A stretch of DNA of 32,000 nucleotides from Desulfocapsa sulfexigens DSM 10523 (GCF_000341395.1 NC_020304.1:3360001-3392000); one strand, 5' to 3'. Positions 1 to 18,405 are shown, numbered from the stretch's first letter. Notes: generated from the letters alone by a model not told the origin. Made by a program: numbers and translations.

Positions 1-1125
1 GAAATAGATGCAGTTGGTGGTAGCCGTGCTGGAGGAAGCACGGCCAGTGGCCAGGACGAAAGAAGCCAGACCTTGAATGCACTCCTGGTCGAAATGGATG
101 GATTTTCGTCTACTGACACCATTATAGTGCTTGCAGCAACCAATAGACCAGATATCCTGGATCCAGCCCTGAGACGTCCAGGTCGTTTTGACAGACAGGT
201 CAACATCCTGCCACCTGACATCAAGGGCAGAAAACGAATCCTTAAGGTTCACAGTGCCAAAGTTGCTCTTGCCCCTGAAATCAACCTCGACAAAATTGCT
301 CATATGGTTCCCGGTTTTACTGGTGCAGAGCTGGCAAATCTTGTCAACGAAGCGGCCCTGATGGCTGCAAGAGAGCAAAAGAAAGTTGTTAGCCATCAAC
401 ATTTTGAGCAGGCCAGAGATCGCATACTTATGGGGGTTGAACGAAAGGGGAGAATAATGTCCGACGCTGATCGAGAGATTCTTGCCTACCATGAGGCAGG
501 TCACGCAATTGTTGCCAAAACCCTACCCGACGCTGACCCAATCCACAAAATAACCATCATCCCTCGTGGCCAGGCACTTGGCCAGACGCAGCAATTATCC
601 ATTAACGATAGAAGCAGTTATAACTTCAACTACCTGCGCAGTAGAATTGTTATTTTGATGGGTGGCAGAGCAGCAGAAGAGATTGCATTTGGACAACGTA
701 CTACAGGCGCCCAGGGGGACATTGTTCAAGCCACTGAAATTGCGACCAACATGATCTGCAAGTGGGGAATGAGCGATGTAATAGGTCCGCAGGCCATGGT
801 AATAGATAACGCAGGATTCCTTGGAGGCTCATCGCACCGTGTTGAAATGAGTGACAGGACATCGGAAGCAATTGACAAGGAGATAAAAAATCTCCTGGCG
901 TCCTGCCACGATGAAGCAGTAGTAATCATCAAAGAACAATACTACCTTCTCAAACAGCTTGCAGCCATACTCCTTGAGGTTGAAACCCTGGATGATGAGG
1001 AGTTCAACATCATCATGTCCTGTCAATTTAAGGAAAAAATTGCTGCAGGAATAAAAGAAACTCACGAGTGTGAAACCTGCCCTGCAGCTGACAGATGTAT
1101 TCATTCAAAGCTGAAGAAGGACTAG
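1..1125 (+). CDS. ftsH: ATP-dependent zinc metalloprotease FtsH, paralog 1 (5' end outside the window)
   Basis: Frame 1 is open from nt 1 (EIDAVGGSRAGG...[13 protein letters not shown]). It carries the AAA+ second region of homology ATNRPDILDPALRRPGRFDR, the zinc-protease motif HEAGHA, and IPRGQALG. It is collinear with, and roughly 55-60% identical by eye to, the complete FtsH at 12216-14039. The ORF-track start at 73 is an internal TTG. It ends in a Cys/His tail, HECETCPAADRCIH. Confidence 0.93.
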   Translation, partial: EIDAVGGSRAGGSTASGQDERSQTLNALLVEMDGFSSTDTIIVLAATNRPDILDPALRRPGRFDRQVNILPPDIKGRKRILKVHSAKVALAPEINLDKIAHMVPGFTGAELANLVNEAALMAAREQKKVVSHQHFEQARDRILMGVERKGRIMSDADREILAYHEAGHAIVAKTLPDADPIHKITIIPRGQALGQTQQLSINDRSSYNFNYLRSRIVILMGGRAAEEIAFGQRTTGAQGDIVQATEIATNMICKWGMSDVIGPQAMVIDNAGFLGGSSHRVEMSDRTSEAIDKEIKNLLASCHDEAVVIIKEQYYLLKQLAAILLEVETLDDEEFNIIMSCQFKEKIAAGIKETHECETCPAADRCIHSKLKKD

Positions 1126-1135
1126 GATAAAGAAA

Positions 1136-2041
1136 ATGCGGTCCTTAAAAAAAATGAGCTACCTCGTTTTCATGGGGGTAGCCCTTCTCCTCCTGTTGGT
1201 GATCATCTTCATTGTTCGCCAGTATCAACTGTCAGAACAATACGACACCATCATAACACAAAGCGAGAAGATGGTCTTTCAACTGCTGACGATACGGGAA
1301 CAACTCACCACTTCCCTTATCAAACAGGATTGGAAAGCCATCGCCACAACTGCAAACCAACTTGAAGATCTCAACTCTTCCATCGCAAGACTTCAGGAAA
1401 ATCCATTGATCCCAGGTGAGTTCAGACTTGGAATGGCACATCAAGTAGATGTCTCCGGTATAGCTATCGCTTCAAGAGAAATACTTTCAAGTTCTGACAA
1501 GCTTACAAACAGTCTTGTACTACAAGACAAGATGCGCAGTCTCACAGAATATCTTCTTCAGTTTGACCGTATTATAGGAAGTCAAATGCGTGCAAAAGTT
1601 GTGGCTTTCCAGACGGTAATGATAGGCGCACTTGGTGTGATCATTTGCCTAATAAGTTTTTCTCTTATTCTGCTCTACAAAAAGGCTTTAATCCCCCTCC
1701 TCCACCTTAAAAGACAAACCACGGACAACGATGTCATCAGCACTGGATTTCTGTATGACAAAAGCACCTGCTCAGAAATTACCATTTTTGTTGATTCTGT
1801 AAACTCACTACTCGATCAAATGAAAAACAGATCAGCAACTCAGGAACTTCCCCACACACTCAGCGATGAACTTGCTTCTATTATCAATGAAAGCAATAAT
1901 ATATCAAATGGAATCATCAATTATGCTCAATTGTTAAAGGATTCCTACCGTGAGGTTGAGATGGGAAATGAGGAGATGAAAATCCTCCAGAATATTATCG
2001 AAGGAGCTGAAAGAATCGCTCATCTTAACAAACAAATATAA
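1136..2041 (+). CDS. Two-TM membrane sensor-like protein with a DHp-only, His-less histidine-kinase remnant (pseudo-kinase; sensor paralog A)
   Basis: The ATG lies 10 nt after the ftsH stop. Predicted TM helices are at about res 8-27 and 155-180, around a ~130-aa helical loop homologous to the loop of the 16981 protein (ENPLIPGEFRL vs EDILIPEEFKL). The C-terminus INESNNISNGIINYAQ aligns 11/16 with the H-box AHEINNPINGIINYAQ of the 5975 kinase, but Asn251 (nt 1886-1888) replaces the phospho-His. The protein stops after DHp helix 2 and has no HATPase domain. Confidence 0.8.
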   Translation: MRSLKKMSYLVFMGVALLLLLVIIFIVRQYQLSEQYDTIITQSEKMVFQLLTIREQLTTSLIKQDWKAIATTANQLEDLNSSIARLQENPLIPGEFRLGMAHQVDVSGIAIASREILSSSDKLTNSLVLQDKMRSLTEYLLQFDRIIGSQMRAKVVAFQTVMIGALGVIICLISFSLILLYKKALIPLLHLKRQTTDNDVISTGFLYDKSTCSEITIFVDSVNSLLDQMKNRSATQELPHTLSDELASIINESNNISNGIINYAQLLKDSYREVEMGNEEMKILQNIIEGAERIAHLNKQI

Positions 2042-2397
2042 AACTCATTCTGTGCATATGATCAATGTTGGGCAAAACTTAACCTAACATATACTCTTTC
2101 CGATATTCATATAGCTTTAATATAACAAATTTTTTAAATATCTTCTTGCAAGTTTACATGATTTTTTTCAGTATTTTAGAAACAAATTAAGTTCACTGGC
2201 CATACTAATTTTCACTTGACACTACGCTATTATGGCAGTATGCATTGCCTCCAACAATCTCAAACACTACTAAGTAGTAGCATACCATGTGGTATTACTG
2301 GTAACGATTCCCAGTTATTATGCTATTTAGTAATGTAATTAAACGTTTTATTACCTCCTTCATTTCACGCTGACCCATATCTACCGGAGCACAAAAA

Positions 2398-3342
2398 ATG
2401 ATCAAAAGTCCCCTATTAATGACCAGCTTTTTAACCCTTTCCACTTCCCTCCTGCTTGCTGGAAACTGTCTTGCCGAAGACGAATACGACGTCAAGGCCT
2501 ATGGTCCCAAAAGTGCGATCGTCTGGAACACTCCGATCAAGGCAACTTTTGACCATAAAACGCATACCATGGATGCCGGCGTCGAATGCTCGAGTTGTCA
2601 TGATGAAATATTTTCCATGCAACGCGGTACTGCCGTCAATACAAAAAAATTCACCATGAAAGCGATGGCAGAGGGACAGTTTTGTGGCACATGCCACGAT
2701 GGTGACACAGCCTTTGCCACCGACACAAACTGCATGGCATGCCATGGTGTTGCTGAAGAACCTCTCATATGGGAGGCCCCTACCAAGGCATCGTTCAGCC
2801 ATACTAAACATGTTGAAGAGATAGAACTTGAATGCGCGAGTTGCCACAGTGGTGTTTTTGCCATGAAAAAAGGAGCAGCTACTGCCAATAATGACTTCAC
2901 CATGGCTGCGTTCAAGGAAGGCAAGTATTGCGGGGCATGCCACAACGGTGACGATGCATTCGATTCGTCTACCCAATGCCAATCCTGCCACTACCCACCA
3001 ACTGAAAAAATTGTTTTCAACCAGCCCGTTAAATCCGTTGTCTTTGATCACAACATCCATGTTGGTAAAGCAGAACTTTCCTGCGAATCCTGTCACAAAG
3101 ACGTTTTCACTATGAAAAAAGGAACCATCGAAGGTGAAGAACTCAGCTTTTCTGATGACCCTGCAGAGAAACGAAAATATCTTGAAGCTCTGCACAACAA
3201 GTTTTGTGGCACCTGTCACGACTCATCCCAGGCCTTTGGTTATCTTACCCGATGTACTGTCTGTCACATTGGTGTTAAGGGATTCGACAAGATGAATGAG
3301 GGTACCTCCGGCAGTAAGGAGCATGGGAAAACAGGGCATTAA
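2398..3342 (+). CDS. Periplasmic nine-heme cytochrome c (three tandem c7-type triheme repeats)
   Basis: Sec signal peptide MIKSPLLMTSFLTLSTSLLLAGNCLA. There are nine CxxCH motifs (CSSCH, CGTCH, CMACH, CASCH, CGACH, CQSCH, CESCH, CGTCH, CTVCH). They are arranged as 3 repeats of the pattern F-H-x2-H...CxxCH...F-x-M...CGxCH-x-G-x2-AF...CxxCH. GGAG lies 10 nt upstream of the ATG. Confidence 0.92.
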   Translation: MIKSPLLMTSFLTLSTSLLLAGNCLAEDEYDVKAYGPKSAIVWNTPIKATFDHKTHTMDAGVECSSCHDEIFSMQRGTAVNTKKFTMKAMAEGQFCGTCHDGDTAFATDTNCMACHGVAEEPLIWEAPTKASFSHTKHVEEIELECASCHSGVFAMKKGAATANNDFTMAAFKEGKYCGACHNGDDAFDSSTQCQSCHYPPTEKIVFNQPVKSVVFDHNIHVGKAELSCESCHKDVFTMKKGTIEGEELSFSDDPAEKRKYLEALHNKFCGTCHDSSQAFGYLTRCTVCHIGVKGFDKMNEGTSGSKEHGKTGH

Positions 3343-3453: not shown

Positions 3454-4761
3454 ATGACTGGAAGGATGGTTAATATTTCAAAAAGATGGGGATTTCATGG
3501 CGTCGAAGCCTTGAAAAATGCAAGTCCCCTGTACAAATTAACAATGGGAATGTTTGCACTTCTTGCTCTTGCCGGTGTGTCTGTAGGTCTCCATGGCATG
3601 ATCACCGGATATCACCATGTATACGGTGTAACAAGAGAAATTTCCTGGGGAGTACTTATATCAGCATATATCTTCTGTGTTGTTACCTCAACCGGACTCT
3701 GTATTGTCTCATCCATTGGTCATGTTTTCGGCGGTGAAGCTTTTATGCCCATTGCTAAGCGTGCCGTATTTATGTCAATTGTTTTTATGTTTGGTGGCTT
3801 TTGTATCATATTCTTTGATATAGAAAACCCCTTTCGCATGGCAATCTGGAACGTCATTTCACCGAATTTTGTTTCAAATATGTGGTGGATGGGAACACTC
3901 TACGGAATGTATCTCGTGTTCATGATTGTTGAATATTATTTTCTTCTCGAGCAAAACCATTCCTTATCCCGCCTCATGGGATTCTTTGGACTTGTTGTTG
4001 GTATTGCAGCTCATAGTAACCTGGGCGCAGTTTTTGGAATGCTTCATGGACGCCCATTCTGGTATGGCCCCTATCTTCCAATTTACTTCATCTTCTCCGC
4101 CGCCATGTCAGGTGGTTGCGCCATTCTCTTCTTCACTACACTTGGCTGGAAAATTAACCCTGAAATCATGAACCAGCGAATGGAACGAGCCATAAAAGCC
4201 ATTACGCAGGTCACAATCTTTCTTATTTCTGTAATTATTTTCTTTACCATCTGGAAAATCATTACCGGGATGGTTTCTGAAGGAAAGCATCTTGTTATAA
4301 TGTCTTTCTTGACTGGAGATTATGCCATTAATTTCTGGGTTTTTGAAATTTTCCTTGGAATGGTTCTTCCCCTCTATCTTCTTATCCGTTCACGAGGAAA
4401 CAATTTCAATCTCATTATGTGGGCCACCGGCCTTATGATGATCGGTATTTTCTTCATGCGTTATGACATTGTCATTCCAGGTCAAATGGAATCAGTATAC
4501 CACTCATTGGGTGTTGAAGAAGCCAAAAACATGCTCACCTACACCCCTTCATTCCATGAAATAATGGCCTCGCTCTTTGGTATTGGATTCATTGGCCTTG
4601 CCTATTTCGCCGGTGAAAAGATGCTCAATGGACACCAGCTTGAAAAGCATGAAATCGTCCCTGAGGGAGGCTATATCTGTCCAGGTTGTGGAGCTATCCA
4701 CTTTATGGAAGAAGGTGAAAGCGAAGAAGATGCAATGAAGCGTCACCATAGAATCTGGTAA
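3454..4761 (+). CDS. NrfD/PsrC-family polytopic membrane (quinone-interacting) subunit with a C-terminal CPGC/His-rich extension
   Basis: Strong RBS AAGAGGAG. The 435-aa protein is very hydrophobic with about 10 predicted TM helices and NrfD-like N-terminal helices. It sits between a cytochrome gene and a Tat-FeS gene, as in NrfBCD/Psr-type modules. The family call comes from composition and context, not from a search. Confidence 0.8.
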   Translation: MTGRMVNISKRWGFHGVEALKNASPLYKLTMGMFALLALAGVSVGLHGMITGYHHVYGVTREISWGVLISAYIFCVVTSTGLCIVSSIGHVFGGEAFMPIAKRAVFMSIVFMFGGFCIIFFDIENPFRMAIWNVISPNFVSNMWWMGTLYGMYLVFMIVEYYFLLEQNHSLSRLMGFFGLVVGIAAHSNLGAVFGMLHGRPFWYGPYLPIYFIFSAAMSGGCAILFFTTLGWKINPEIMNQRMERAIKAITQVTIFLISVIIFFTIWKIITGMVSEGKHLVIMSFLTGDYAINFWVFEIFLGMVLPLYLLIRSRGNNFNLIMWATGLMMIGIFFMRYDIVIPGQMESVYHSLGVEEAKNMLTYTPSFHEIMASLFGIGFIGLAYFAGEKMLNGHQLEKHEIVPEGGYICPGCGAIHFMEEGESEEDAMKRHHRIW

Positions 4762-4856: not shown

Positions 4857-5681
4857 ATGAAATTTCCTAAAATAAATTTTGATAATATGAAGAACGAGGG
4901 AACCTCATCAGTCACCCCTCAAGAAAGACGAAAGTTTTTAAAACTCGGCCTTGCAGTCGCTGGTGTCTACGCAGGAGGAAAGATACTTTCCTTAACCTCC
5001 ATCGTTGGAACTGCGCATGCATCAGGTGGCAGCAGCATTGTAAAAAAATACCCATACAATCCACACTACAGTATGGTTATCCGTCAGTCTCTCTGTATTG
5101 ACTGTGAGAAATGCGTTGAATCATGCAACAAAACCAACCATGTCCCTGAATATGGTTATAGAACTCGTATCCTGACAAAGAAATATTCAGGAACTCTTGA
5201 CAAACAGGTTGAGTTTATTCCTGTACTTTGCAATCATTGTAACGATGCCCCCTGTGTAAGAGCATGCCCAACACGGGCAACCTTCAAGGATCCTATAACT
5301 GGTATTGTACGCATGGAGAGTAAAAAATGTATAGGCTGTAAAACCTGCATACTTGCATGCCCCTATGATGCCCGTTATTTCAGTGCTGAAAGACGCGCTG
5401 TAGACAAATGTGACTTCTGCTGGGAAGAAAGACTCTCAAAGGGCGAGACACAGACCGGTTGTTCATCTGCCTGCCCCACTGGAGCCAGAACCTTCGGCAA
5501 CCTTACCGATCCCGAAAATATTGTATACAAACTGGTTCATCAGCTGGAAGAACAGGTATGGGTTCTCCGTCCTGCCGATGATACTAAACCAAATATTTTC
5601 TATATGAAGGGTAATATGCGCTCGGTTGACAATATTCTCAATGGTCAGAAATTCAAATACTTCGATCCTGACAAAGTGTAA
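4857..5681 (+). CDS. Tat-exported 4x[4Fe-4S] ferredoxin-type subunit (NrfC/PsrB-like)
   Basis: Twin-arginine signal ERRKFLKLGLAVAG. Four Cys clusters are present: CIDCEKCVESC, CNHCNDAPCVRACP, CIGCKTCILACP, CDFC...CSSACP. There is no C-terminal TM helix. Confidence 0.9.
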   Translation: MKFPKINFDNMKNEGTSSVTPQERRKFLKLGLAVAGVYAGGKILSLTSIVGTAHASGGSSIVKKYPYNPHYSMVIRQSLCIDCEKCVESCNKTNHVPEYGYRTRILTKKYSGTLDKQVEFIPVLCNHCNDAPCVRACPTRATFKDPITGIVRMESKKCIGCKTCILACPYDARYFSAERRAVDKCDFCWEERLSKGETQTGCSSACPTGARTFGNLTDPENIVYKLVHQLEEQVWVLRPADDTKPNIFYMKGNMRSVDNILNGQKFKYFDPDKV

Positions 5682-5715
5682 CACACCGCACCTGGAACCT
5701 ATCCCGTTTCATCAA

Positions 5716-5755
5716 TCCCTTCCTACCAGTTCCTGGTAGGAAGGGATTTTTTTTT
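5716..5755 (+). terminator. Rho-independent terminator of the cytochrome/NrfD/FeS operon
   Basis: A 13-bp perfect stem, tcccttcctacca (5716-5728) / tggtaggaaggga (5734-5746), is followed by a run of 9 T (5747-5755). It starts 35 nt after the FeS stop. Confidence 0.9.
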
Positions 5756-5974: not shown

Positions 5975-7978
5975 ATGAACCCTTTTCGAAGAAATGAGAT
6001 CCTTCTCGCGATAAATGAACTTGCTGCCTCCGAAGCCGTAGAAGCTACCGGGGCCGACAAGTTGCTGAGGAAGTGTTGTGAAATTATCATGCAAAATCAT
6101 GAATATTGCCTTATATGGGCTGGAATTCGTGATGAAGATGGCGCTGCGATAACCCCTCTGGCAGCACTTACTTCTGCCAACATTCCCGATAGAGACTGTA
6201 TGTATCTCGTTGAGCAGGTTATCACCGACATGAGTTCAAGCAACCCTGCTGCCGAAGCACTCGTGTCTGGAACTAAAGTCATAATTCAGGATGTTCGTTC
6301 AACCAAACACTACAATTCCCTTCGCGAAATCTCTTTGAAAACCGGTTTCAGATCATGTTCTTCCTGGCCTCTTCTCTATATGGGGAGAGAATTTGGTATT
6401 ATTAACATTCACTCCGAAAAGGTTGATTGTTTTACTGATGAGGAAATTTCGTTTTTACAGGCGGTCGTCTCTGATATCGCCCTGGCTCTTTATACTCAGG
6501 ATATGACCAGGCGGATTCAAATAGAACGGGATTTCAACAGAGAAATGGTAGATACAATGCAAGCGCTTCTTATCTCTATTTCTCCCTGCGGAAAAATTTT
6601 ATCCTTTAACCAGAAGGCAGAAGAGGTGACTGGATACACTGAAGAAGAGGTCATTGACCGCTACTGGGTTGATGTCTTGATGGCTGAAGAAAATCGTAAG
6701 GCAGACCAACAACTTCTCACCCATGTACTGAAAGGTGAGACAGAACAGATGAATTTCGAATCATGCCTGCTTACGAAAGACTGTCAAAAGCGGTTTATCA
6801 ACTGGCACGCCTCTTTTCGACAGAATCTCGAAAAAGGAAAACTTGGGCTTGTCCTGTTTGGAATCGACATTACTGGGCAACTCCAAGTTGACCATGATCT
6901 TAAGCAGGCAATTTCACAATGGGAAAATATTTTTTCCGCAATTCAGGATCCAGCCCTCATTGTCTCAAAAGACTCCGTTATTCTTGATGCCAATCTGGCA
7001 ACATTCACAGCTGCACGGAAAACGCGCCCGGATGTCATTGGTCATAAAATATGCGACATTCTCCACCTCGGTCGCTCAACAAATGCACCCTGCCCTCTGG
7101 AACAGTTTATTGCAAAAGGTAAAAGCAGGATTATTGAAACTGAACTAAGAGGACTCCACGGTAACTATCTTCTTACCATCAGTCCTTTAAATATGAATGA
7201 CGGTGAAGAGGAAGCAGCCCTTCTTGTTGCCAGAGATTTAACAGAGGAAGAACTGATGAAGGCAGAAGCCATGCGCGCAGCTCAACTCGCCTCAGTGGGT
7301 GAGCTTGCAGCAGGTGTTGCCCATGAAATCAATAATCCCATAAATGGAATTATCAATTATGCCCAAATCATCCTCGACGACCCCGATGATCCAGACAATA
7401 GAGATCTGCTGGTACGAATAAAAAAAGAAGGAAAACGTATAGCATCGATAGTTTCGAATCTTCTCGATTTCTCAAGACGTGGTGAGGAATCGCCAGAAGA
7501 AGTTGCTATCCAAAGCATACTCAACAAGAGCCTGGAGCTTGTCAGTCACCGCTTTAACAACGATATGATACTTCTGGACATGCAACTCCCTGAAAACCTC
7601 CCTCTGGTTTACTGTAATTCTCAACAGATTCAACAGGTTTTCCTCAACATTCTCTCAAATGCCCGCTATGCCCTGAACGAAAAATTTCCAGGGCCAGATC
7701 CCAACAAGATCCTGACTGTTCGTGGTGAGACGATAATGCATGCAAAGGCCACTTATGTTCGTATTACCATAACAGATAACGGTTCTGGAATTGAACAGGA
7801 TTTAATCGATCGGGTTTTTGATCCATTTTACTCGAGTAAACCCAAAGGTGAAGGTACCGGTCTTGGCCTCTCCATCAGTCATGGACTCATTCAGGACAAC
7901 AAAGGATACCTCAGAATAGCCAGTGAACTCGGATCTTCAACATCCCTACTTGTTGATTTACCTATTTCTTCAAACTAA
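5975..7978 (+). CDS. Soluble GAF-PAS-PAS sensor histidine kinase (canonical catalytic core)
   Basis: No TM segments. The N-terminal ~170 aa are GAF-like and are followed by two PAS-like regions. H-box AHEINNPINGIINYAQ (His450, nt 7322-7324), N-box NILSNARYAL, G1 DNGSGI, F-box FDPFYS, G2 GEGTGLGLSIS. Confidence 0.9.
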   Translation: MNPFRRNEILLAINELAASEAVEATGADKLLRKCCEIIMQNHEYCLIWAGIRDEDGAAITPLAALTSANIPDRDCMYLVEQVITDMSSSNPAAEALVSGTKVIIQDVRSTKHYNSLREISLKTGFRSCSSWPLLYMGREFGIINIHSEKVDCFTDEEISFLQAVVSDIALALYTQDMTRRIQIERDFNREMVDTMQALLISISPCGKILSFNQKAEEVTGYTEEEVIDRYWVDVLMAEENRKADQQLLTHVLKGETEQMNFESCLLTKDCQKRFINWHASFRQNLEKGKLGLVLFGIDITGQLQVDHDLKQAISQWENIFSAIQDPALIVSKDSVILDANLATFTAARKTRPDVIGHKICDILHLGRSTNAPCPLEQFIAKGKSRIIETELRGLHGNYLLTISPLNMNDGEEEAALLVARDLTEEELMKAEAMRAAQLASVGELAAGVAHEINNPINGIINYAQIILDDPDDPDNRDLLVRIKKEGKRIASIVSNLLDFSRRGEESPEEVAIQSILNKSLELVSHRFNNDMILLDMQLPENLPLVYCNSQQIQQVFLNILSNARYALNEKFPGPDPNKILTVRGETIMHAKATYVRITITDNGSGIEQDLIDRVFDPFYSSKPKGEGTGLGLSISHGLIQDNKGYLRIASELGSSTSLLVDLPISSN

Positions 7979-7988: not shown

Positions 7989-9110
7989 ATGAACAAAAAC
8001 TACCGAATTCCACTCCTGCTCTCAATTATGTTCTTATCGGTTGCCACTGTTTTGTATTTTTTTGATTTACGGATTTCTAACAGCTGCTCGACTGTTAACT
8101 ACATCCCTTACAATATCTGGTCCTTAGTTATTCTTTTTTTCCTATACGTCATTACAATTTTTCTTTTTTGGCGTGAATCAAAGATATTTAAAAGGAAAGA
8201 GGTAACCCTTCAGAAGAATCTAAAAATGGCTACTGACTCTTTAAATGATGTTCAGTCATCCTTGGATGATGCTGTCGAGAAAAAAACATTTGAAATGTCG
8301 GTCATCAATGGATCGCTTAACCGGGAAATTGCCGAACGAATTCAAGCAGAAGCCGAAGGCCTTAAACTGCGAAAACGACTCCACACTATTCTCGACTCTG
8401 CAGGAGATGGCATCTTTGGGATAGATCTCGAAGGAAAAGTAACTTTTGTTAACCTTAAAGCCACGGAATTACTCGGTTGGACAAGGGAAGAACTAATAGG
8501 CACATCACACCACGACCTGGTCCATCACACCCGCAGCAATGGCCAGGATTTTCCTGTTGAAGAGTGTCCAATTTATATGGCCTACAAGGATGGACAGATG
8601 CACTTTGAAAAGAACGACGTTTTCTGGAAAAAGTCGGGTGACAACTTTATGGTCGAATACACCTCAACACCACTTCTCGATAACGGTCAGATATCAGGTG
8701 CTGTTGTGGTTTTCAAAGACATATCAAGAACGAAGAGACTCGAACGGCAACTTGATTTGATCGTTAACTCCGCAGGAGAAGGAATTTTTGGACTCGACAC
8801 TAATGGCAATGTAACCTTCATGAACAAGGCAGCATCCATTATGCTCGGGTGGGAGATGAAGGAATTGATCGGTAAATCACATCATCAACTGGTCCACCAC
8901 AGCCATGCGGACGGAACAAAATACCAGGAGTCCGATTGTCCTATTTTCATGGCCTGTAAGGATGGACAGGTACATTTCAAATCAGACGATCTTTTCTGGA
9001 CAAAAGACGGAAGCAGCTTTCCGGTAGAGTATACTTCCACCCCTATCATTGAGGGTAAAACACTTACTGGCGCAGTAGTTGTATTCAGAGATTTAACAAC
9101 CTTTGCATGA
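7989..9110 (+). CDS. Membrane-anchored tandem-PAS protein with no output domain
   Basis: AAGGAG (7977-7982) lies 6 nt before ATG 7989, so the ORF-track start at 7923 would overlap the kinase gene and is rejected. There are two TM helices, a coiled-coil linker, then two ~50% identical PAS repeats (SAGDGIFGIDLEG...VVVFKDIS and SAGEGIFGLDTNG...VVVFRDLT). Each repeat carries SHHxLVHH-x3-(N/D)G-x7-CPI. The protein ends 6 residues after the second PAS. Confidence 0.88.
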   Translation: MNKNYRIPLLLSIMFLSVATVLYFFDLRISNSCSTVNYIPYNIWSLVILFFLYVITIFLFWRESKIFKRKEVTLQKNLKMATDSLNDVQSSLDDAVEKKTFEMSVINGSLNREIAERIQAEAEGLKLRKRLHTILDSAGDGIFGIDLEGKVTFVNLKATELLGWTREELIGTSHHDLVHHTRSNGQDFPVEECPIYMAYKDGQMHFEKNDVFWKKSGDNFMVEYTSTPLLDNGQISGAVVVFKDISRTKRLERQLDLIVNSAGEGIFGLDTNGNVTFMNKAASIMLGWEMKELIGKSHHQLVHHSHADGTKYQESDCPIFMACKDGQVHFKSDDLFWTKDGSSFPVEYTSTPIIEGKTLTGAVVVFRDLTTFA

Positions 9111-10979: not shown

Positions 10980-10993
10980 CCCCCACTGCCACT

Positions 10994-11023
10994 GCTACAC
11001 TTCTGTGGAATCAGAAGTGTAGC
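10994..11023. promoter_or_regulatory. Perfect 12-bp inverted repeat (two head-to-head copies of the 16-mer motif core); candidate enhancer (UAS)
   Basis: gctacacttctg (10994-11005), tggaat, cagaagtgtagc (11012-11023). No U-tract follows, so it is a poor intrinsic terminator. It lies about 225-250 bp upstream of the -24 element of P2. Confidence 0.5.
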
Positions 11024-11027
11024 ACAT

Positions 11028-11043
11028 GCCACACTTATGTGGT
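11028..11043 (+). promoter_or_regulatory. 16-mer palindromic motif copy (GCCACACTTATGTGGT)
   Basis: It matches copy A at 5858-5873 at 14/16. It starts 5 nt after the 10994-11023 palindrome. Confidence 0.5.
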
Positions 11044-11244: not shown

Positions 11245-11260
11245 TGGCACCGTATGTGCA
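11245..11260 (+). promoter_or_regulatory. Sigma-54 (-24/-12) promoter, P2
   Basis: The sequence is TGGCACcgtatgTGCA. GG at 11246-11247 and GC at 11258-11259 are separated by exactly 10 nt. It lies about 47 nt upstream of ATG 11307. Confidence 0.7.
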
Positions 11261-11306: not shown

Positions 11307-12212
11307 ATGCAGGCCATACATTTTCACATAGAAAGCTTTCCCAAGACTCTTGATGAGTTCAAGAGGCTTTTTAATAATGAAGAGAAAAGTCTGCGTTTTC
11401 TCTTTTCAAAAAGATGGCCTAACGGTTTCGAGTGCCCTTACTGCAACTGGCTTGATGACAACCTTATACCAACCAAGACTAGAACATGCGGTCATTGTGG
11501 TCACCCAACCTCAATTACCACCAACACAATCATGCATGGAACCAAAAAGCCACTTTCACAATGGCTTATCTCCATATACTGGCTCACATCGACAGCAGGC
11601 GGAAACAGTGCTAAAGATTTGCAGCGTCTGCTGAAACTTTCAAGCTACCAGACTGCATGGACATGGCTGCAAAAGCTGCGCATGGCCATGGCCATCGCAG
11701 ACAAAAAACGGTGTAGCAAAACAGTAGAGATTTCTTCCGATACCATTTCCCTAGGTGGCGAAGCCCACAATAAACCTCTTATTCTGGCCGCTGCTGAGAT
11801 AGTCCTTCCTGCCGGAATTACAGGGAGAATAAAAATGGCAACAATTAGCTCTTTTAACTCGGAAACCGTCAACTCCTTTCTTGAGCAACATGTTGCGCCT
11901 GGTGCCTCTCTTATCACACCAGAAGATACGCAATACAAACTCATTACTGGCAACAATTTCGTGACAATTACAGACCCTGCAATTTACCGAACTAAACAAA
12001 TAATCAAAAGTTTTGAGATCTGGATCAATAAGATTCACCGAGGTGGAGTTGCAGCAAAACACCTGCAACTTTATCTCGACGAGTTTTGTTTTCGACGCAA
12101 TGCTGAAATGCTGCCGGACAGAGAAGCAATATTTAACCTTCTTCTTTCAGGCGTAATCAGTAAAAAATCGCTCTCCTACAAAAGCATCATTTCGCAATCC
12201 ACAACGGAGTAG
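11307..12212 (+). CDS. IS1595-family transposase-like protein (N-terminal Zn-ribbon plus ISXO2-like domain), with no detectable IS ends
   Basis: AAGGAG RBS. Zn-ribbon RWPNGFECPYCNW...CGHCGH. VEISSDTISLGG resembles the first-Asp block vEvDEtyiGG, and the C-terminal KHLQLYLDEFCFRRN is the family signature. By eye, the second catalytic Asp position is Pro (LITPEDTQY), and the region before the Glu block is short. The stop lies 3 nt before the ftsH ATG. Confidence 0.7.
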   Translation: MQAIHFHIESFPKTLDEFKRLFNNEEKSLRFLFSKRWPNGFECPYCNWLDDNLIPTKTRTCGHCGHPTSITTNTIMHGTKKPLSQWLISIYWLTSTAGGNSAKDLQRLLKLSSYQTAWTWLQKLRMAMAIADKKRCSKTVEISSDTISLGGEAHNKPLILAAAEIVLPAGITGRIKMATISSFNSETVNSFLEQHVAPGASLITPEDTQYKLITGNNFVTITDPAIYRTKQIIKSFEIWINKIHRGGVAAKHLQLYLDEFCFRRNAEMLPDREAIFNLLLSGVISKKSLSYKSIISQSTTE

Positions 12213-12215: not shown

Positions 12216-14039
12216 ATGTCTCAAATCCAGACAGGATTATTGGTCCTTCTTCTTACTTTCCTTGGTGTTGTTGGATACAACGTCTATCTTCACGAAACTA
12301 CTCCCAATGATATTTCGTACACCGAGTTCGTAGAACTGCTTGAAGACGGTAAAATAAAAGATATACACCTCAAGGGTGGTGTCGTTACTGGTACAGACCT
12401 GACCCTCCATGAGTTCAGCTCTTTTATTGTTGACCTCCCTTCCATTCTCCCCCTAATTGAACGTCAGGGAGTAACAATCACAGCAGAAAAGGATAGTGAG
12501 ACTCTCAGCGGCTTTATGCAATCAATGGTTCCAGTCTTTCTTATTCTTGGCGGTTATCTTATTTTTTCAAGAATGCAGAAAGGTGATAAAGGTGGATTCG
12601 GAAAAAACAAAAGCCGCTCTTTTCACCCTAAAAAGAATACAGGAGTCACTTTTGACGACGTAGCTGGTATCAGTGAAGCCAGAACTGAGCTCGTTGAGAT
12701 TGTAGACTCATTAAAAAATCCTGAAAAATTCTCAAGGCTTGGCGGATATGTGCCAAAGGGAGTTCTCCTCCAGGGCCCTCCAGGAACCGGAAAAACTCTC
12801 CTTGCCAAGGCAATAGCCGGGGAAGCCTTAGTCCCCTTTTATTCCATTGGCGGATCCGATTTTGTTGAAATGTTTGTTGGTGTTGGGGCGTCACGGGTTC
12901 GGGAGCTTTTTACCGAAGCCAAAAAGAATTCACCATGCATCATATTTATAGATGAAATTGATGCCATAGGCGGAAAACGAAGTGGCGGAAATGCTACCGG
13001 ATCAAACGACGAACGTGAACAGACATTGAATGCGCTGCTGGTCGAGATGGATGGATTCGATTCTAACGAAACCGTTATCATCATTGGGGCAACAAACCGT
13101 CCTGACATGCTTGATCCTGCACTTTTAAGGCCCGGACGTTTTGATCGCCAGGTAACTATATCATTGCCGGATGTAAAGGGACGCCGCAACATTCTTGAGG
13201 TCTATGCAAAAAAAATAGTTATGTCTCCCAGTGTCAATCTGTCAGAGATTGCGCGATCAATCCCAGGGTTCAGTGGTGCTGAAATTGCCAACCTCGTCAA
13301 TGAGGCTGCTCTAACTGCAGCCCGTTACAACAAAAAGGCTGTTGAAACATCAGATTTTGATGAGGCAAAAGACAAGATAAGTCTCGGTCTCGAACGTAAA
13401 AATGTTGTCATCAATGAAAAAGACCGCAGGGTCACAGCATATCATGAAGCTGGCCATGCGATTACAGCAAAACTTTTGCCCGACACCGATCCCGTACACA
13501 AGATATCCATTATTCCTCGTGGGCAAGCCCTTGGCCTTACCCAGCAATTGCCTCTTGCTGATAAACACACCTACTCTCGTGACTATCTCCTTAACAGAAT
13601 CAAAATACTCATGGGTGGCAGAATAGCAGAGGAAATAATTTTTGATCATCAAACTACAGGTGCCAGCAATGATCTCGTTGGAGCAACTGAGATTGCCAGT
13701 CGTTTTGTCTGTGAATTCGGCATGAGTTCAACTATTGGCCCAATCGCCTACATGCAGGAACAGGGTGGTTTTCTAGGCGGAACAAGCACGATGAAACCCT
13801 ACAGCGAAAAAACTGCAGAACGCATCGATAATGAAATCAAAAGGGTTATTGAACAATGCTATGTGGAAACAACAGAACTTCTGACTCAGAACAGTAAATT
13901 TCTCCACAAACTCGCTGAGGCCCTTCTTGTCAACGAAACCGTGGATGGTGAAGAATTCGATATCGTCCATAACTGTTATATAAACGAAAAAAATATTGAA
14001 AAAAATTTAAAGAATAAACGCAAGGAGGAACGGCTTTAA
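12216..14039 (+). CDS. ftsH: ATP-dependent zinc metalloprotease FtsH, paralog 2 (complete)
   Basis: 607 aa with two N-terminal TM helices flanking a ~75-aa loop. Walker A GPPGTGKT, Walker [38 protein letters not shown]. The RBS ACGGAG lies inside the preceding ORF. Confidence 0.95.
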
Positions 14040-14098: not shown

Positions 14099-14635
14099 AT
14101 GCGAACACGAAAGAAAATCATGAGGACAGCGTTAGCGCTTACCGTTGGTTCCTTTATGATAACACCCATCACAGCGTGGTCAATGGAGGCGTCCGATGCT
14201 CCAGAAACTGTCACCATCGACAGTATGAGTAAGTTGTACGGGCCGGTGGAATTTGATCATAGTATGCACGTTGGATACGCCAGTTGTCAGGAATGCCATC
14301 ATCACACAACCGGTGAAGTTGTAGCTGACCCGAACTGTGCCCGCTGTCACAACAGCGCAGATGAAAATGATGTTGTCAGCTGCAGTGAGTGTCATGAAGC
14401 TAACAGGTTTAACGAAAAATATCTTAAAACCCTTGAAGACCCAAAGCTTTACCACATTGACAAGCCTGGTCTGAAAGGTGCGTACCACCTCAATTGTGTT
14501 GGGTGCCATACCATCACATCTGGACCAACTGGATGTGTAGATTGTCATGCCATGACAGAGGATGGAGAGAAGATGTTTAATACGGGAGCTTTTGCCCCTG
14601 CTAAAGGAACATCATCCTCTGGTCAGAAACATTGA
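14099..14635 (+). CDS. Periplasmic cytochrome c3-family multiheme cytochrome (five CxxCH motifs)
   Basis: AAGGAGG RBS and a signal peptide. VEFDHSMHVGYASCQECHHH is a typical c3 heme-1 block. Motifs: CQECH, CARCH, CSECH, CVGCH, CVDCH. Confidence 0.9.
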   Translation: MRTRKKIMRTALALTVGSFMITPITAWSMEASDAPETVTIDSMSKLYGPVEFDHSMHVGYASCQECHHHTTGEVVADPNCARCHNSADENDVVSCSECHEANRFNEKYLKTLEDPKLYHIDKPGLKGAYHLNCVGCHTITSGPTGCVDCHAMTEDGEKMFNTGAFAPAKGTSSSGQKH

Positions 14636-14674
14636 TCAGAACATCCAGTGACCAGTTTTATGAGAGGAAAAAAA

Positions 14675-15640
14675 ATGAAAAAACTATTTAGCCGTAGAAA
14701 TTTTCTAAAAGGCGGGCTTGCAACGACAGCAGCCGCCGCGGTACTTAAAAATAAAGAAACCAAGGCATCGGGTGACTTCGAAGGATATCCCGATGGCATG
14801 GGTGTACTCGTAGACCTGACCCGTTGTGTTGGCTGCCGATCATGTGAAGCCGCATGTAACAAGGAACAGGAACTTCCAGAACCAGCAAAACCATTCACCG
14901 ATTTTTCAATCTTCGACGAAATGCATCATGGTCAGAAAAGACGCACGGACGAAACAGCTTACACCGTAGTCAATCGGTACGATGTACCAGAACTCGACCA
15001 TCCACTATTCAGGAAATTTCAATGTAATCATTGCCAGGAACCAGCATGCCTCACCTCCTGCTTTGTTAATGCTTATACAAAAACACCTGAAGGTGCTGTT
15101 ATCTATAACTCTAAGGTCTGTGTTGGCTGCAGAACCTGTATGATAGCCTGCCCCTTCTACGTACCAACCTTTAAATATTCCAGTGCATTCAGTCCTAAAA
15201 TCATGAAGTGTGTATTCTGTTACGATACCCGCCTTAAAGAAGGAAAAGCCCCTGCATGTGTTGAGGCATGCCCACAGGAAGCATTGACCTTTGGCAAGCG
15301 TGTTGACTGTATCGATATGGGTCGCCAGCGTATTCGTGAAACTCCTGGGAAATATGTTGATCATATTTATGGCGAGCATGAGGTTGGAGGTACTGCCTGG
15401 ATGTATCTTTCCAGTGTACCTTTTGATAAAGTTGGTTTTGATACCCACGTCCCAAAAGAACCTATCATTAATTCAGTTAAAGACTTCCTTGCCATGGTAC
15501 CAATGGTACTCACCATCTGGCCTGGACTCTTTGTAGGATTCCACTTACTGGCTACACGGAAAGAGAAAATGATGGAAATGGAAAAAGAAAAAGAACTTGC
15601 CAAACAAAAAGCAACCGATGAGAAGGAGGAGCAGGTATGA
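14675..15640 (+). CDS. Tat-exported 4Fe-4S subunit with a C-terminal membrane anchor (HybA/HmcB/DsrO-like)
   Basis: The preferred start is ATG 14675, 6 nt after GAGAGGA, giving MKKLFSRRNFLKGG, a classic Tat signal. The ORF-track GTG at 14648 is less likely. Cys clusters: CVGCRSCEAAC, CNHCQEPACLTSC, CVGCRTCMIACP, CVFC...CVEACP. It has a C-terminal TM helix (FLAMVPMVLTIWPGLFVGFHLLA) and a K/E-rich tail. Confidence 0.9.
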   Translation: MKKLFSRRNFLKGGLATTAAAAVLKNKETKASGDFEGYPDGMGVLVDLTRCVGCRSCEAACNKEQELPEPAKPFTDFSIFDEMHHGQKRRTDETAYTVVNRYDVPELDHPLFRKFQCNHCQEPACLTSCFVNAYTKTPEGAVIYNSKVCVGCRTCMIACPFYVPTFKYSSAFSPKIMKCVFCYDTRLKEGKAPACVEACPQEALTFGKRVDCIDMGRQRIRETPGKYVDHIYGEHEVGGTAWMYLSSVPFDKVGFDTHVPKEPIINSVKDFLAMVPMVLTIWPGLFVGFHLLATRKEKMMEMEKEKELAKQKATDEKEEQV

Positions 15641-16890
15641 AACTCTTTTCAAAAGAACGACCTGATATTCCAATCGTCAACCATCTCAAAGCAGATGGTA
15701 CAGAGTGGACAGTTAAAGAAAAACTCTGGTTAGGCCTGTCAGTATCAGAGTACAAAAAACAGTTTTTCAGAAATCCTGTAAACTGGCTGATGATAGCAAT
15801 TTTTGCTGTTGGTGTTCCACTTATTGTTGGACGTTATATCTTTGGTCTTGGCTGGGTAACCCATGCCTCCAATGACTATCCCTGGGGTCTTTTTCTTGGA
15901 TTCGGACTTTTTGGAATGGTCCCACTTTCAGCATCAGGATTTATGCTTGGAACAACAGTAGAGCTTTTTGGCAGAAAAGATTTTCATGCCATTGAACGCT
16001 TAGCCCTGCTCAACGGTCTTCTCGGTTACTTCTTTGCTGTACTGTTCCTTGAGGTTGACCTTGGCATGCCATGGCGTCTTCCTTACCCTATGTTCGTGTC
16101 TCTAGGACCTGCTGCCGTACTTTTTCTTGTTGCATGGCATGTTGCCACCTATCTTTCTGTTCAAATAGCAGAAGTACTCCCTGCCTTTTTTGAGTGGATT
16201 GGCTGGCTCAAAGGAAAACGTATAATCAGGAAGTATGTTCTTGGACTCACAGTAGCAGGAATTATCCTTTCTACACTCCATCAGGGAGCTCTGGGTGCAT
16301 TATTCACCTATGCACCTGCAAAAGTCCATCCATTATGGCTGTCGGTGAATTTCCAATGGATACATTTTTTCTGCTCATCTATTTTTGCAGGATTATCCAT
16401 GGTCATAATTGCATCAACACTAATTAAAAACTTCATGGGATGGCGCTGTGATGATGAATTCAAAGACAATCTTGACTACATCACCATAGGACTGGCAAAA
16501 GGTGCTTCATATGCCATGATAACATACCTGATCATCAAAATAGTTGCGGTTGCTCATGACCAGGAATGGTCATATCTTCTCACCGGATGGGGCAGTTACT
16601 ACATGTTGGAACTTGGCGTTGCAGTGGTACTTCCAATGTTTATGTTTGCCATTGGTATCAGGAATAAATGGGTAACACTCATTAGATTCGGTGCCTTTAT
16701 TGCTGCATTTGGTATCATCTGGAATCGTCTGAACACTGCTCTTATTTGTTACAACTGGCAGATGTATCAGGAAATTCCTCACTGGAAGGAAGTGTGGATA
16801 ACGATTACAATTTACTCACTCTATTTCCTGACCTACCGCTTTATCGTCTATCGCCTTCCCATCGTATATGGATGGAAGGGTGAAAAATAA
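15637..16890 (+). CDS. NrfD/HybB/DsrP-family polytopic membrane subunit
   Basis: ATGA overlap with the FeS gene stop. 417 aa with about 10 TM helices. The N-terminal block YPWGLFLGFGLFGMVPLSASGF is typical of this family. Confidence 0.85.
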   Translation: MKLFSKERPDIPIVNHLKADGTEWTVKEKLWLGLSVSEYKKQFFRNPVNWLMIAIFAVGVPLIVGRYIFGLGWVTHASNDYPWGLFLGFGLFGMVPLSASGFMLGTTVELFGRKDFHAIERLALLNGLLGYFFAVLFLEVDLGMPWRLPYPMFVSLGPAAVLFLVAWHVATYLSVQIAEVLPAFFEWIGWLKGKRIIRKYVLGLTVAGIILSTLHQGALGALFTYAPAKVHPLWLSVNFQWIHFFCSSIFAGLSMVIIASTLIKNFMGWRCDDEFKDNLDYITIGLAKGASYAMITYLIIKIVAVAHDQEWSYLLTGWGSYYMLELGVAVVLPMFMFAIGIRNKWVTLIRFGAFIAAFGIIWNRLNTALICYNWQMYQEIPHWKEVWITITIYSLYFLTYRFIVYRLPIVYGWKGEK

Positions 16891-16911
16891 AAATCTGTAG
16901 TCATCTTAACA

Positions 16912-16945
16912 GCCAGAGTTTCCAAGAGTATTTGGAAACTCTGGC
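16912..16945 (+). other. Intercistronic 14-bp perfect stem-loop without a U-tract
   Basis: gccagagtttccaa (16912-16925), loop gagtat, ttggaaactctggc (16932-16945). It lies between the NrfD-like gene and the sensor gene. Confidence 0.6.
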
Positions 16946-16980
16946 CACTTCCATACCCTACAACAAAAGAGAGATAAAAG

Positions 16981-18405
16981 ATGAGAAACTTTCTTTCAAA
17001 ACTATCCTTGAAACGTATATTCTCTCTTTTTACTGTCACAACCATAGTCCTGCTTTTCATTGTGATCTTCTTTGCAGGAAAACAGTATTTTCTCTTTCGA
17101 CATTGCGAAAAACTTGTTGACTCAAGCCAGCATCTCCTCTTTCAATTTACCGGAATAAAAGAACACATAAACGAAACCCTGCTCAGTAACGGCACACTGA
17201 ACACTCCTGAAATAAACAAGGAAATCCAAAGCCTCGACTCACAGTTACAACATATACTGGAAGACATTCTCATTCCCGAGGAATTCAAACTTAACTTTAT
17301 CAGTCAGCTCGATCTTGTAAATATCACAGTGGCATTGAGGAATTTGCAAAACAGCACTCCTCCGATCAATAACGAGCAGTTGGCGACACTTTCTGCCCAA
17401 CTCCGTAGTGTCAATTCAAAACTCACCGGTTTTCATGAATTGATAAGCAGATACACCCAGACGCAGCTCCTGGGACTTCATAAAGCACTTGTTGGACTCC
17501 TTTCAATCGTAATTGCTTTGGTGAGCATCATGCTTCTCACCATAAATCGATATATAACCTCCCCCATCCTTCATTATTGCCGGACACGTTCTCCGAGTGA
17601 AACAGAGCCAGTAACTCTCTTTTCCCTACATAAAACAATCGAAACATTGGCAGACAATCCTGTTGCAGGATCGGTAACTAGCCCAGATGACAGTCTTGAG
17701 TTGACACGTCTCTACAGATACAGCTCAATAGGACACTTGCTTGGAGGGCTCAGTCATGAACTGACAAATATTTCGAATGGTATTCTTAATTACACCCAGG
17801 CAATTATTGACCTGAGTAATGATTCTAATTTAGATGCGGACTCTCGACAGCTACTGCACAAACTTTTTGTTGAAGAAAAAAAGATGTCTCAGCTTCTGAG
17901 CAATATGATTGCTTTTACAAGTGGTAGTGCCCAGGGACAGGCAAAAGTACTTTCTGTTGAAGAACTTTTTGAAAACATTAGGACACTCGTTCACGGAACC
18001 TTTAAAAGTGAACAAATAAACCTCAATATTAAACTCAGCAATCCGGCATTTATGCTGAAAAACCATGTAAGTGATTTACAACTTGTCATCCTTTCTGCCA
18101 TACAAAATAGCCGAACGGCCCTCAATTATCGTTATGTGGGGGTTGTCCCCGAGTCAGAAAAGAAAACAATACAGCTCTCCTTCGACGAACCTCTCCAGAA
18201 TAGCAACAGCATATGTGTCGAGATTCTTGATAACGGTGCCAGTCATTCTAAAACGGCAGATGGGAGTAAAACGACCAGGCCATGGCACAATATGAATGTC
18301 TGCAAAAGTTTTCTTCAGACCTTTGGCGGAACCCTTGAGCTCACCAGAACGAGTGACAAAACCAATCGTTGCCTTATCTGTCTTCCTTTATCAAAAGATA
18401 ATTAA
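16981..18405 (+). CDS. Two-TM sensor histidine-kinase-like protein with an intact H-box but degenerate ATP-binding boxes (sensor paralog B)
   Basis: It has the same TM / 130-aa loop / TM layout as the 1136 protein, and the loop is homologous. H-box LSHELTNISNGILNYTQ, N-box ILSAIQNSRTAL. G1 is DNGASH instead of DNGxGI. No F-box or GxGLGL G2 is present (RPWHNMNVCKSF in that position). Confidence 0.85.
   Translation: MRNFLSKLSLKRIFSLFTVTTIVLLFIVIFFAGKQYFLFRHCEKLVDSSQHLLFQFTGIKEHINETLLSNGTLNTPEINKEIQSLDSQLQHILEDILIPEEFKLNFISQLDLVNITVALRNLQNSTPPINNEQLATLSAQLRSVNSKLTGFHELISRYTQTQLLGLHKALVGLLSIVIALVSIMLLTINRYITSPILHYCRTRSPSETEPVTLFSLHKTIETLADNPVAGSVTSPDDSLELTRLYRYSSIGHLLGGLSHELTNISNGILNYTQAIIDLSNDSNLDADSRQLLHKLFVEEKKMSQLLSNMIAFTSGSAQGQAKVLSVEELFENIRTLVHGTFKSEQINLNIKLSNPAFMLKNHVSDLQLVILSAIQNSRTALNYRYVGVVPESEKKTIQLSFDEPLQNSNSICVEILDNGASHSKTADGSKTTRPWHNMNVCKSFLQTFGGTLELTRTSDKTNRCLICLPLSKDN

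Follow-up and report, generated by a model that had tools for sequence, protein, structure and literature searches.

A 32,000-nucleotide stretch of the Desulfocapsa sulfexigens DSM 10523 genome (NC_020304.1:3360001-3392000, here called the window) carries a conserved gene cassette in duplicate. The cassette consists of a kinase and an activator of sigma-54-dependent transcription, a sigma-54 promoter, and an operon encoding an FtsH protease, a membrane pseudokinase (Sens), either small one-helix membrane proteins (sm) or an IS1595-like protein, and the subunits of a redox module. Its parts recur together and are co-inherited behind a conserved promoter; the protease motifs of its FtsH proteins are intact, and the kinase and transposase motifs of their neighbors are dead. 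FtsH is very probably a genuine, co-regulated component of the cassette. As to its role, we infer that proteolysis by FtsH sets the lifetime of the redox complex and feeds back onto the regulators of the operon, a model to which, taken as a whole, we assign a probability of roughly 0.55.

FtsH is usually regarded as a housekeeping protease. The original prediction for this DNA described two FtsH-anchored modules of cytochrome, iron-sulfur (FeS) and NrfD-like proteins on either side of a sensory operon, and proposed that they form an undescribed system. Annotation by open reading frame (ORF) calling, Pfam and NCBIfam models and a scan of the window proteins for transmembrane (TM) helices locates all three parts on the plus strand: module 1 at 1-5681, the sensory operon at 5975-10979 and module 2 at 11245-18405. 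The genes of interest are UWK_03027-03040, all on that strand. The genes that had been listed for the modules are present; four small TM genes and an activator gene upstream had been overlooked.

Conservation of the cassette and its promoter

Related loci were gathered in two scans. In genomes of Desulfocapsa, Desulfocapsaceae and Desulfobulbaceae, an alignment of SensB, the pseudokinase of module 2, matched 30 loci; an alignment of mixed Sens sequences, applied independently to metagenomes, added 80 more. The related loci number about 110 (single loci are given L numbers below). The cassette ranges over Desulfobulbales genomes and unclassified metagenome contigs. All 30 genome loci with enough flanking sequence keep the module-2 order of kinase, PAS protein, activator, IS1595-like gene, FtsH2, c3-type cytochrome, HmcB, HmcC and SensB; FtsH2 is 65-90% identical among them, HmcC 77-94% and the IS1595-like protein 47-84%. 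The module-1 order, kinase, activator, sm genes, FtsH1, SensA, c7-type cytochrome, NrfD and FeS protein, is kept in every locus examined, among them L032-L035 and about 30 metagenome loci. In the four genome contexts of SensA, which include Desulforhopalus, the kinase is a PAS-kinase and the sm genes number three to five. A third unit of sm genes, FtsH3 and SensC occurs in two of the four genome contexts of SensA (L033 and L034), and the genes for FtsH3 and SensC overlap in L034.

Neighbor counts were pooled over Sens genes with at least 6.5 kilobases (kb) of upstream flank, and an ftsH was counted if it lay on the same strand with its end less than 4.5 kb upstream. Every such Sens gene (68/68) has an ftsH in this position. 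Among FtsH proteins of the cassette clade described below, a Sens gene follows in 58 of 61 cases, and homologs of the cytochrome, FeS or NrfD genes follow in 56 of 61. The synteny that the original prediction had offered as a check is therefore found, and its central argument, that FtsH and sensor are kept as a pair beside distinct quinone-linked modules, extends to four module types. The first type combines a c7-type cytochrome, NrfD and an NrfC-like FeS protein, and the second a c3-type cytochrome, HmcB and HmcC. A third, with FeS protein and NrfD, follows FtsH3-SensC in L076 and L077. In a divergent group (L070, L074 and others), a NapC/NirT-type multiheme cytochrome of 477-502 residues follows Sens, with no NrfD module; this variant spans 6481-10000 of L074 and 6786-9293 of L070.

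A sigma-54 promoter precedes the FtsH/Sens operons in most cases. The one in module 2, TGGCAC-N5-GTGCA (TGGCACCGTATGTGCA; 11245..11260, plus strand), starts 62 nucleotides (nt) 5' of the first gene of the operon. The pattern TGGCA[CT]-N5-[GAC][TA]GC[AT] stands upstream of the IS1595-like start in 31/31 loci. The distance is 40-83 nt in 28 loci, 22 of which fall within 61-65 nt, and 133-174 nt in the remaining three. In the same loci, ftsH2, sensB and the gene for the c3-type cytochrome have no comparable sigma-54 site in front of them. Arrays of sm genes have their own sigma-54 promoter in 23 of 25 cases, placed 40-80 nt 5' of the mapped array start in 19 and no more than 20 nt from an over-extended ORF call in the rest. 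With their conserved -24 GG/-12 GC promoters and AAA+ activators, these operons belong to the sigma-54-dependent class; their dependence on RpoN is predicted, and the sigma-54 control proposed for module 2 gains support. A count of sigma-54 motifs over the whole window (23 matches, 19.6 expected) was unusable as evidence, and conserved sites alone were counted.

Upstream of the module-2 promoter, by about 205-250 base pairs, lie three copies of TGCYACACTT in alternating orientation (10993..11039). They look like a candidate binding site for the activator. At least two copies occur at an equal distance in 13 of 47 related loci, in closer relatives only.

FtsH proteases, pseudokinases and accessory proteins

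The two FtsH proteins had been described as paralogs, as had the two sensors, and both pairings hold: FtsH1 and FtsH2 are 56% identical over 346 residues, and SensA and SensB are 24% identical (E = 2e-26). The ftsH1 gene begins 5' of the window, on a Logan contig (L001) that extends 3692 bases further upstream (window position = L001 position minus 3692). The full gene encodes 623 residues (L001 2946-4817), of which the 3' part of 374 codons occupies 1..1125 on the plus strand, with Pfam matches to Peptidase_M41, AAA and AAA_lid_3. The ftsH2 gene is complete (607 residues; 12216..14039, plus strand). Both proteins are FtsH family members, scoring 714 (FtsH1) and 740 bits (FtsH2) with TIGR01241, whose equivalog cutoff is 600. 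N-terminal TM helices on either side of a periplasmic domain are found at residues 1-19 and 99-117 of FtsH1 and at 7-25 and 99-117 of FtsH2; the latter also has an FtsH_ext domain and aligns over residues 26-582 to E. coli FtsH (7vhp). All 36 module FtsHs examined have Walker B, the FVGVG pore loop, the second region of homology (TNRPD..GRFD) and the zinc site HEAGH, which reads HESGH in one of them. A strict Walker A, GPxGxGKT, is present in 31 of the 36, including both window proteins; the other five were left uninspected. By sequence, the module FtsHs are thus active proteases and not pseudoproteases.

The FtsH2 sequence was searched against 1.84 billion cluster representatives, and a neighbour-joining tree was built from the 77 nearest full-length FtsH representatives and 18 module FtsHs. 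Among these, FtsH1, FtsH2 and FtsH3 fall into one separate clade, an outcome in keeping with the phylogenetic check that had been suggested. The sole other member, P0312, is 60% identical to FtsH2, and the remaining nearest representatives reach at most 48% identity. P0312 is itself encoded in a cassette, with PAS-kinase, PAS protein, activator, FtsH, cytochrome, FeS protein, HmcC-like protein, Sens, sm and a 104-residue protein, and without an IS1595-like gene. Nor is ftsH present here as a single housekeeping copy: two copies lie within 18 kb in the window, and three are found in L033 and L034. Because these two or three copies are sigma-54-driven and sit in a clade of their own, their reading as ordinary housekeeping genes is unlikely.

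The C-terminus of FtsH1 (about 1060-1110) carries a tail of the form H-x-C-x2-C-x5-C-x-H (THECETCPAADRCIHSK), which every ortholog of FtsH1 and FtsH3 shares (FtsH3 in L033 and L034) and which may be a metal- or redox-sensing site. FtsH2 orthologs share H[HNQ]CY in its place.

We classify the Sens proteins as NarQ-like pseudokinases. They had been called sensors, and the paralogy implied by that label stands, but they are not kinases. SensA (1136..2041, plus strand; 100% identical to UWK_03028) has no Pfam match. It consists of TM1, a periplasmic four-helix bundle, TM2, a linker and a DHp hairpin at the end of the protein, and has no ATPase domain. In the family H-box (INESNNLSNGIINYAQLL), the phospho-acceptor His is replaced by an Asn (N251) that does not vary across 56 sequences. 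AlphaFold models SensA as all-helical (pLDDT 78), and the best Foldseek matches are the sensor-TM-HAMP fragments of NarQ (6yue, 5iji and 5jgp), at TM-scores of 0.5-0.66, a probability of 1.0, E = 0.04 and 13-14% identity; the top match has a TM-score of 0.51 when normalized to the query and of 0.64 when normalized to the target. The order of TM1, periplasmic four-helix bundle, TM2 and helical linker is also that of NarQ/NarX and Tar, from which Sens differs in that its output is a dead DHp. That SensA could be a truncated kinase pseudogene was ruled out by its 280 homolog clusters, by their uniform length (289-323 residues, mostly 301, among the best 120 listed) and by the invariant Asn.

SensB (16981..18405, plus strand) has a DHp followed by a degenerate ATPase-like domain, in which the G1 and G2 boxes are absent and no HATPase_c match is found. 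It keeps the His in D. sulfexigens, and a subclade of 4 of its 17 orthologs has Asn. Neither protein therefore qualifies as a histidine kinase, SensA for want of both the His and an ATPase domain and SensB for its degenerate one. The DHp of the soluble GAF-kinase (AHEINNPINGIINYAQ) resembles those of both SensA and SensB: in a BLASTP comparison, SensB is 28% identical to this kinase over 151 residues (E = 1e-10). SensA is 41% identical to the co-encoded PAS kinase over 49 residues.

The sm proteins encoded beside FtsH have 62-76 residues, with a polar N-terminus, one helix containing GxWxxxC and a GGPxxL tail; up to five of their genes form an array with a sigma-54 promoter of its own. The family has 56 strong members across the loci examined, and Pfam and NCBIfam searches with sm proteins gave nothing significant. 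Upstream of ftsH1, L001 1657-2840 holds a sigma-54 promoter (TGGCACGCAGCGTGCA) followed by four tandem sm genes for one-helix proteins of 68-74 residues; a strong hairpin with a T-run (L001 2806-2840) separates the array from ftsH1. The layout suggests strong expression of the small proteins, with read-through into ftsH1 being attenuated. Among 3471 small ORFs, the sole weak matches to an sm profile (E = 6e-9 to 0.07) are proteins of about 100 residues, which most genomes encode after sm genes on the 3' side of SensB. Those that are annotated have a weak precomputed match to the DVU_0533 family (PF28260); DVU0533 is probably hmcD of the D. vulgaris hmc operon. The order SensB, sm gene or genes with their own sigma-54 promoter, and the protein of about 100 residues is seen at L038 12223-12762, at L039 15453-15992 and in most of L006-L031, and some loci have several such pairs. 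D. sulfexigens lacks the pair in this position and has a minus-strand LysR gene there.

The ORF at 11307..12212 (plus strand), which opens the module-2 operon, was predicted to be IS1595-like, and its family membership is upheld: it scores 95 bits with NF033547 (cutoff 75), has Pfam zinc ribbon and DDE_Tnp_IS1595 matches, and is 32% identical to annotated IS1595 transposases. Its reading as a mobile insertion is not upheld. Aligned with a pair of annotated IS1595 transposases, all 30 syntenic orthologs have other residues in place of both catalytic Asp (VEvDE and TD) and keep the zinc ribbon, the following block SAKDLQRLL..YQTAWTW (a putative helix-turn-helix) and a C-terminal block. The gene holds an unchanged position in more than 45 loci and is still first in the operon in relatives at 44-46% identity. 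With its stop 3 nt from ftsH2 and the promoter starting 62 nt 5', there is no room for terminal repeats, and most of the homolog clusters listed are on 1-10 contigs, which gives no hint of an element present in many copies. A recent insertion is ruled out by the synteny, the lost Asp residues and the lack of room for repeats, and we regard the ORF as a domesticated, catalytically dead and vertically inherited gene of the operon. Elsewhere, its slot is empty in L040 (a 368-nt gap), and in L080 and L089 it is taken by an sm gene and a DVU_0533-like gene between the activator and ftsH2. We found no literature on domesticated IS1595 transposases in bacteria.

Proposed role and alternatives

In the model that we favor, the soluble kinase and its REC-AAA+ activator would switch on the sigma-54 promoter of the cassette operon, and the redox module would serve as a conditionally installed wire between quinol/quinone and periplasmic cytochromes. 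The pseudokinase would read a periplasmic or membrane cue, and its His-less DHp might bind or sequester the cognate soluble kinase, in the way that DivL and a ChrS pseudokinase variant act with their partners (PMC4211667, PMC9491836). The dedicated FtsH would degrade the pseudokinase, orphan or damaged sm and NrfD/HmcC subunits, or both, and this proteolysis would set the lifetime of the complex and provide feedback onto the sigma-54 activator. We also considered, tentatively and as a rather unlikely form of the idea, that the FtsH paralog, the His-less pseudokinase and sm together make a proteolytic switch that reports the state of the cytochrome module to the kinase and the sigma-54 activator, the IS1595 protein having been recruited in one lineage as an extra DNA-binding component. 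If true, such a switch would be a new coupling of ATP-dependent membrane proteolysis to two-component signaling, dedicated to respiratory modules.

Several points weigh against the favored model. The sensB gene of module 2 is the last of its operon and is not adjacent to ftsH2. The gap between sensA and the cytochrome gene is 357 nt in D. sulfexigens (about 100 nt in relatives), a weak point in the case for cotranscription of the two in this organism. In L074, a Sens-type N-terminal domain is fused to an apparently functional GAF-HisKA-HATPase kinase (665 residues), and a decoy function of Sens is therefore not universal. The sm proteins are weakly related to the DVU_0533-like proteins of about 100 residues and may be mere structural subunits. 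The loci were gathered mostly by way of Sens, which samples the implication from FtsH to Sens less fairly, and the FtsH tree carries no support values.

The main alternative, possible if on balance unlikely, is that FtsH is purely an assembly or quality-control factor of the redox complexes, with no part in signaling, and that the pseudokinase is an independent accessory sensor. A precedent by analogy lies in cyanobacterial and chloroplast FtsH2/FtsH3, extra intact FtsH paralogs dedicated to a single membrane redox complex, which act in photosystem II repair (on D1 in the cyanobacterial case). To our knowledge, these are encoded outside the operon of their substrate complex, are not under sigma-54 control and have no pseudokinase partner. 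Unassembled membrane subunits and small one-helix proteins are typical FtsH substrates, and the cassette units contain polytopic membrane subunits without cofactors and several one-helix proteins beside an FtsH that is active by its motifs and accompanies four module types. Quality control alone, however, leaves the constant presence of a His-less, kinase-like DHp unexplained. It also fits poorly with the tie of Sens to FtsH, which is stricter (68/68) than that of the NrfD-type modules, and with the fact that, in the units of FtsH1 and FtsH3, the ftsH and sens genes adjoin (10 nt apart for ftsH1 and sensA) or overlap.

A response to envelope or redox stress comparable to the sigma-54-dependent Psp system, in which FtsH would provide general clearance and the cytochromes would dissipate electrons or supply them for detoxification (of polysulfide, oxygen or metals, for example), appears improbable. 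It would account for the control by sigma-54 and an activator, for modules without a catalytic subunit and for the Cys-rich tails of FtsH1 and FtsH3, and the organism lives on reactive sulfur species (PMC3739170). Yet the units contain no chaperone or Psp-like genes, and the presence of several cassettes side by side in one genome, with a separate kinase and activator for each, points to specific signals and not to general stress. Highly improbable is a coincidental or mobility-driven linkage of housekeeping ftsH copies, or of an ftsH brought in by an IS1595 element: an IS1595-family ORF that passes the NCBI transposase model does stand directly before ftsH2, and FtsH1 and FtsH2 pass the FtsH equivalog model, but such a linkage is contradicted by a gene order that about 110 loci share, even where the IS1595-like protein is only 44% identical, by the catalytic Asp lost in 30 orthologs with neither room for terminal repeats nor a sign of multiple copies, by the separate clade of the FtsHs, and by a promoter that is a conserved sigma-54 site and not of housekeeping type.

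The favored model draws on parts that are known singly. RetS, which acts with GacS, is one pseudokinase-type regulator of a real kinase. Small membrane peptides that steer FtsH are known as well (MgtR with MgtC, SpoVM and YccA); the sm proteins are like these in being one-helix proteins encoded beside FtsH, but have no sequence relationship to them. With DivL, the partner of CckA (PMC4211667), and the ChrS variant (PMC9491836), the Sens proteins share the loss of the His and/or of catalysis and a partner-like DHp. SensA differs from both in that it lacks any catalytic domain, is anchored in the membrane by a NarQ-like bundle and is always encoded near FtsH; its binding to a kinase is predicted. 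The combination of these parts in respiratory operons, the conserved cassette and its implied logic appear to be undescribed, as the original prediction had suggested: we found no paper on FtsH with D. sulfexigens, NrfD, Hmc or pseudokinases that describes such a cassette.

NrfD-type cytochrome modules that lack a catalytic subunit usually receive an annotation and no further attention. The cassette implies a lineage-wide rule by which such modules are accompanied by a dedicated FtsH, an inactive sensor kinase, small membrane proteins and signal-gated sigma-54 promoters, and this rule offers a way to study how anaerobes set up alternative electron-transfer wires, monitor them and dismantle them. 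It is also a natural system in which the substrates of a specialized FtsH are predictable from the operon, and it includes two enzyme domestications, a pseudo-histidine kinase and a dead transposase. Because several copies of the cassette are present in a model disproportionator, there may be a bearing on the electron-transfer chain of sulfur disproportionation.

Redox modules, regulatory genes and neighbors

The redox subunits of the two modules belong to different subfamilies, as had been predicted, with a nine-CxxCH c7-repeat cytochrome and an unanchored NrfC-like FeS protein in module 1 and a five-CxxCH c3-type cytochrome and a TM-anchored HmcB/HybA FeS protein in module 2. It was also correctly noted that neither module has a catalytic subunit; none was found within 1-18405. 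All genes described here are on the plus strand up to position 18405.

In module 1, the periplasmic nine-heme cytochrome c (2398..3342) has three c7-type triheme repeats, matched by Pfam Cytochrome_C7 in three stretches (E = 1e-42) and by TIGR04257. The polytopic, quinone-interacting membrane subunit of the NrfD family (3454..4761; Pfam NrfD, E = 3e-24) scores 86.6 bits with PF03916 (cutoff 25.8), and its HmcC and DsrP matches are weak and far under their cutoffs. Its cytoplasmic C-terminal extension (about 4660-4761) has a CPGC motif and then an acidic, His-rich tail. The ferredoxin at 4857..5681, exported by the twin-arginine translocation (Tat) pathway and similar to NrfC, DsrO and TtrB, matches Fer4_11 and, below their cutoffs, NrfC (165 bits) and DsrO (156 bits). 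It has the twin-Arg motif RRKFLKLG, no TM helix and 16 Cys residues, which would suffice for four [4Fe-4S] clusters. With an NrfD-family subunit and a 16-Cys Tat ferredoxin, module 1 is an NrfD-type quinone module, and a strong intrinsic terminator (5714..5748; a 16-base-pair stem, then a T-run) closes its operon after the FeS gene.

Geobacter Cbc complexes are likewise NrfCD-type modules with multiheme cytochromes. Module 1 is similar to NrfBCD and DsrJOP in its NrfD-family subunit, its 16-Cys ferredoxin of the NrfC/DsrO/TtrB kind and its periplasmic multiheme cytochrome, and differs from them in the nine-heme c7-repeat cytochrome, in matches that stay far below equivalog level, in gene order and in having FtsH and a pseudokinase in the operon.

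Module 2 encodes a periplasmic c3-type cytochrome (14099..14635) that has five CxxCH motifs and resembles TmcA and the C-terminus of HmcA. It is followed by a Tat FeS protein of the HmcB/HybA type (14648..15640; TAT_signal), which probably starts at the ATG at position 14675. This protein is anchored by a C-terminal TM helix (residues 280-298) and has scores of 402 bits for HmcB (NF045715, cutoff 420) and 197 bits for HybA. The hmcC start overlaps the hmcB stop by 4 nt, and the encoded HmcC/HybB-type membrane subunit of the NrfD superfamily (15637..16890; no Pfam match) is under the equivalog level (356 bits for HmcC, NF045714, cutoff 550; 164 bits for HybB) yet is a clear homolog (E = 2.5e-106). 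A sequence search of the PDB gave no match for this HmcC-like protein or for the NrfD protein of module 1.

The c3-type cytochrome, the anchored Tat FeS protein, the HmcC-type subunit and the lack of a catalytic subunit are shared with the Desulfovibrio Hmc (HmcABCDEF) and Nhc (NhcABCD) complexes, as is, in relatives of module 2, the protein of about 100 residues with a weak DVU_0533-family match. The module probably works like an Nhc/Hmc-type complex; NhcABCD has been described as a TpIc3:quinone oxidoreductase (PMC8076601). It differs in that its cytochrome has five hemes, where HmcA has 16 and NhcA has 9, with an HmcA match that is confined to the C-terminus (38 bits, cutoff 400), in HmcB and HmcC scores below the equivalog cutoffs and, as regards Hmc, in that no HmcE or HmcF genes were found in the window or in related loci. 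No FtsH, pseudokinase or sigma-54 two-component system is known to have been described for the hmc and nhc operons, and a literature search on FtsH with HmcB or HmcC gave no paper in which FtsH occurs.

The sensory operon begins with a soluble GAF-PAS-PAS histidine kinase (5975..7978), whose HisKA and HATPase_c domains are intact by Pfam. A sigma-54-like site (CGGCACGCCTTGTGCA, 5806-5821) starts 169 nt 5' of this gene; since a similar site is found in L031, the regulatory operon may itself be sigma-54-dependent. The next gene encodes a membrane-anchored protein with two PAS domains, two TM helices and no output domain (7989..9110). Each of its PAS domains has a copy of a His-rich/Cys motif, HHDLVHH...ECPIYMAYKDGQ and HHQLVHH...DCPIFMACKDGQ, which suggests a metal or cofactor ligand. 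The third, EBP1 (9162..10979), is a REC-PAS-AAA+-HTH enhancer-binding protein for sigma-54 with a GSFTGA loop in its Sigma54_activat domain (E = 8e-69) and with Response_reg and HTH_8 matches. A second sigma-54 activator, with a GAFTGA loop, is encoded upstream of ftsH1 on L001.

The genome paper reports a third operon with FeS, cytochrome and NrfD genes a few genes further upstream (UWK_03020), and reads all these NrfD genes merely as 'polysulfide reductases' (PMC3739170). A corresponding FeS, cytochrome and NrfD module is seen at L035 12-3081 (the UWK_03020 region), directly 5' of the PAS-kinase/activator pair of module 1, so that three such modules follow one another in the region.

The genes 3' of module 2 (18485-31639) seem unrelated to the cassette. 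They encode the LysR regulator (18485-19405, minus strand), a P-type cation ATPase (20523-23234), a voltage-gated-type ion channel (23713-24537), a histidine kinase (24537-25580) that overlaps a GGDEF cyclase (25561-26388), a CcsA-type cytochrome c assembly protein (26586-27419, minus strand), an MpsC-domain protein (27603-27980) and the large subunit of carbamoyl-phosphate synthase (28367-31639).

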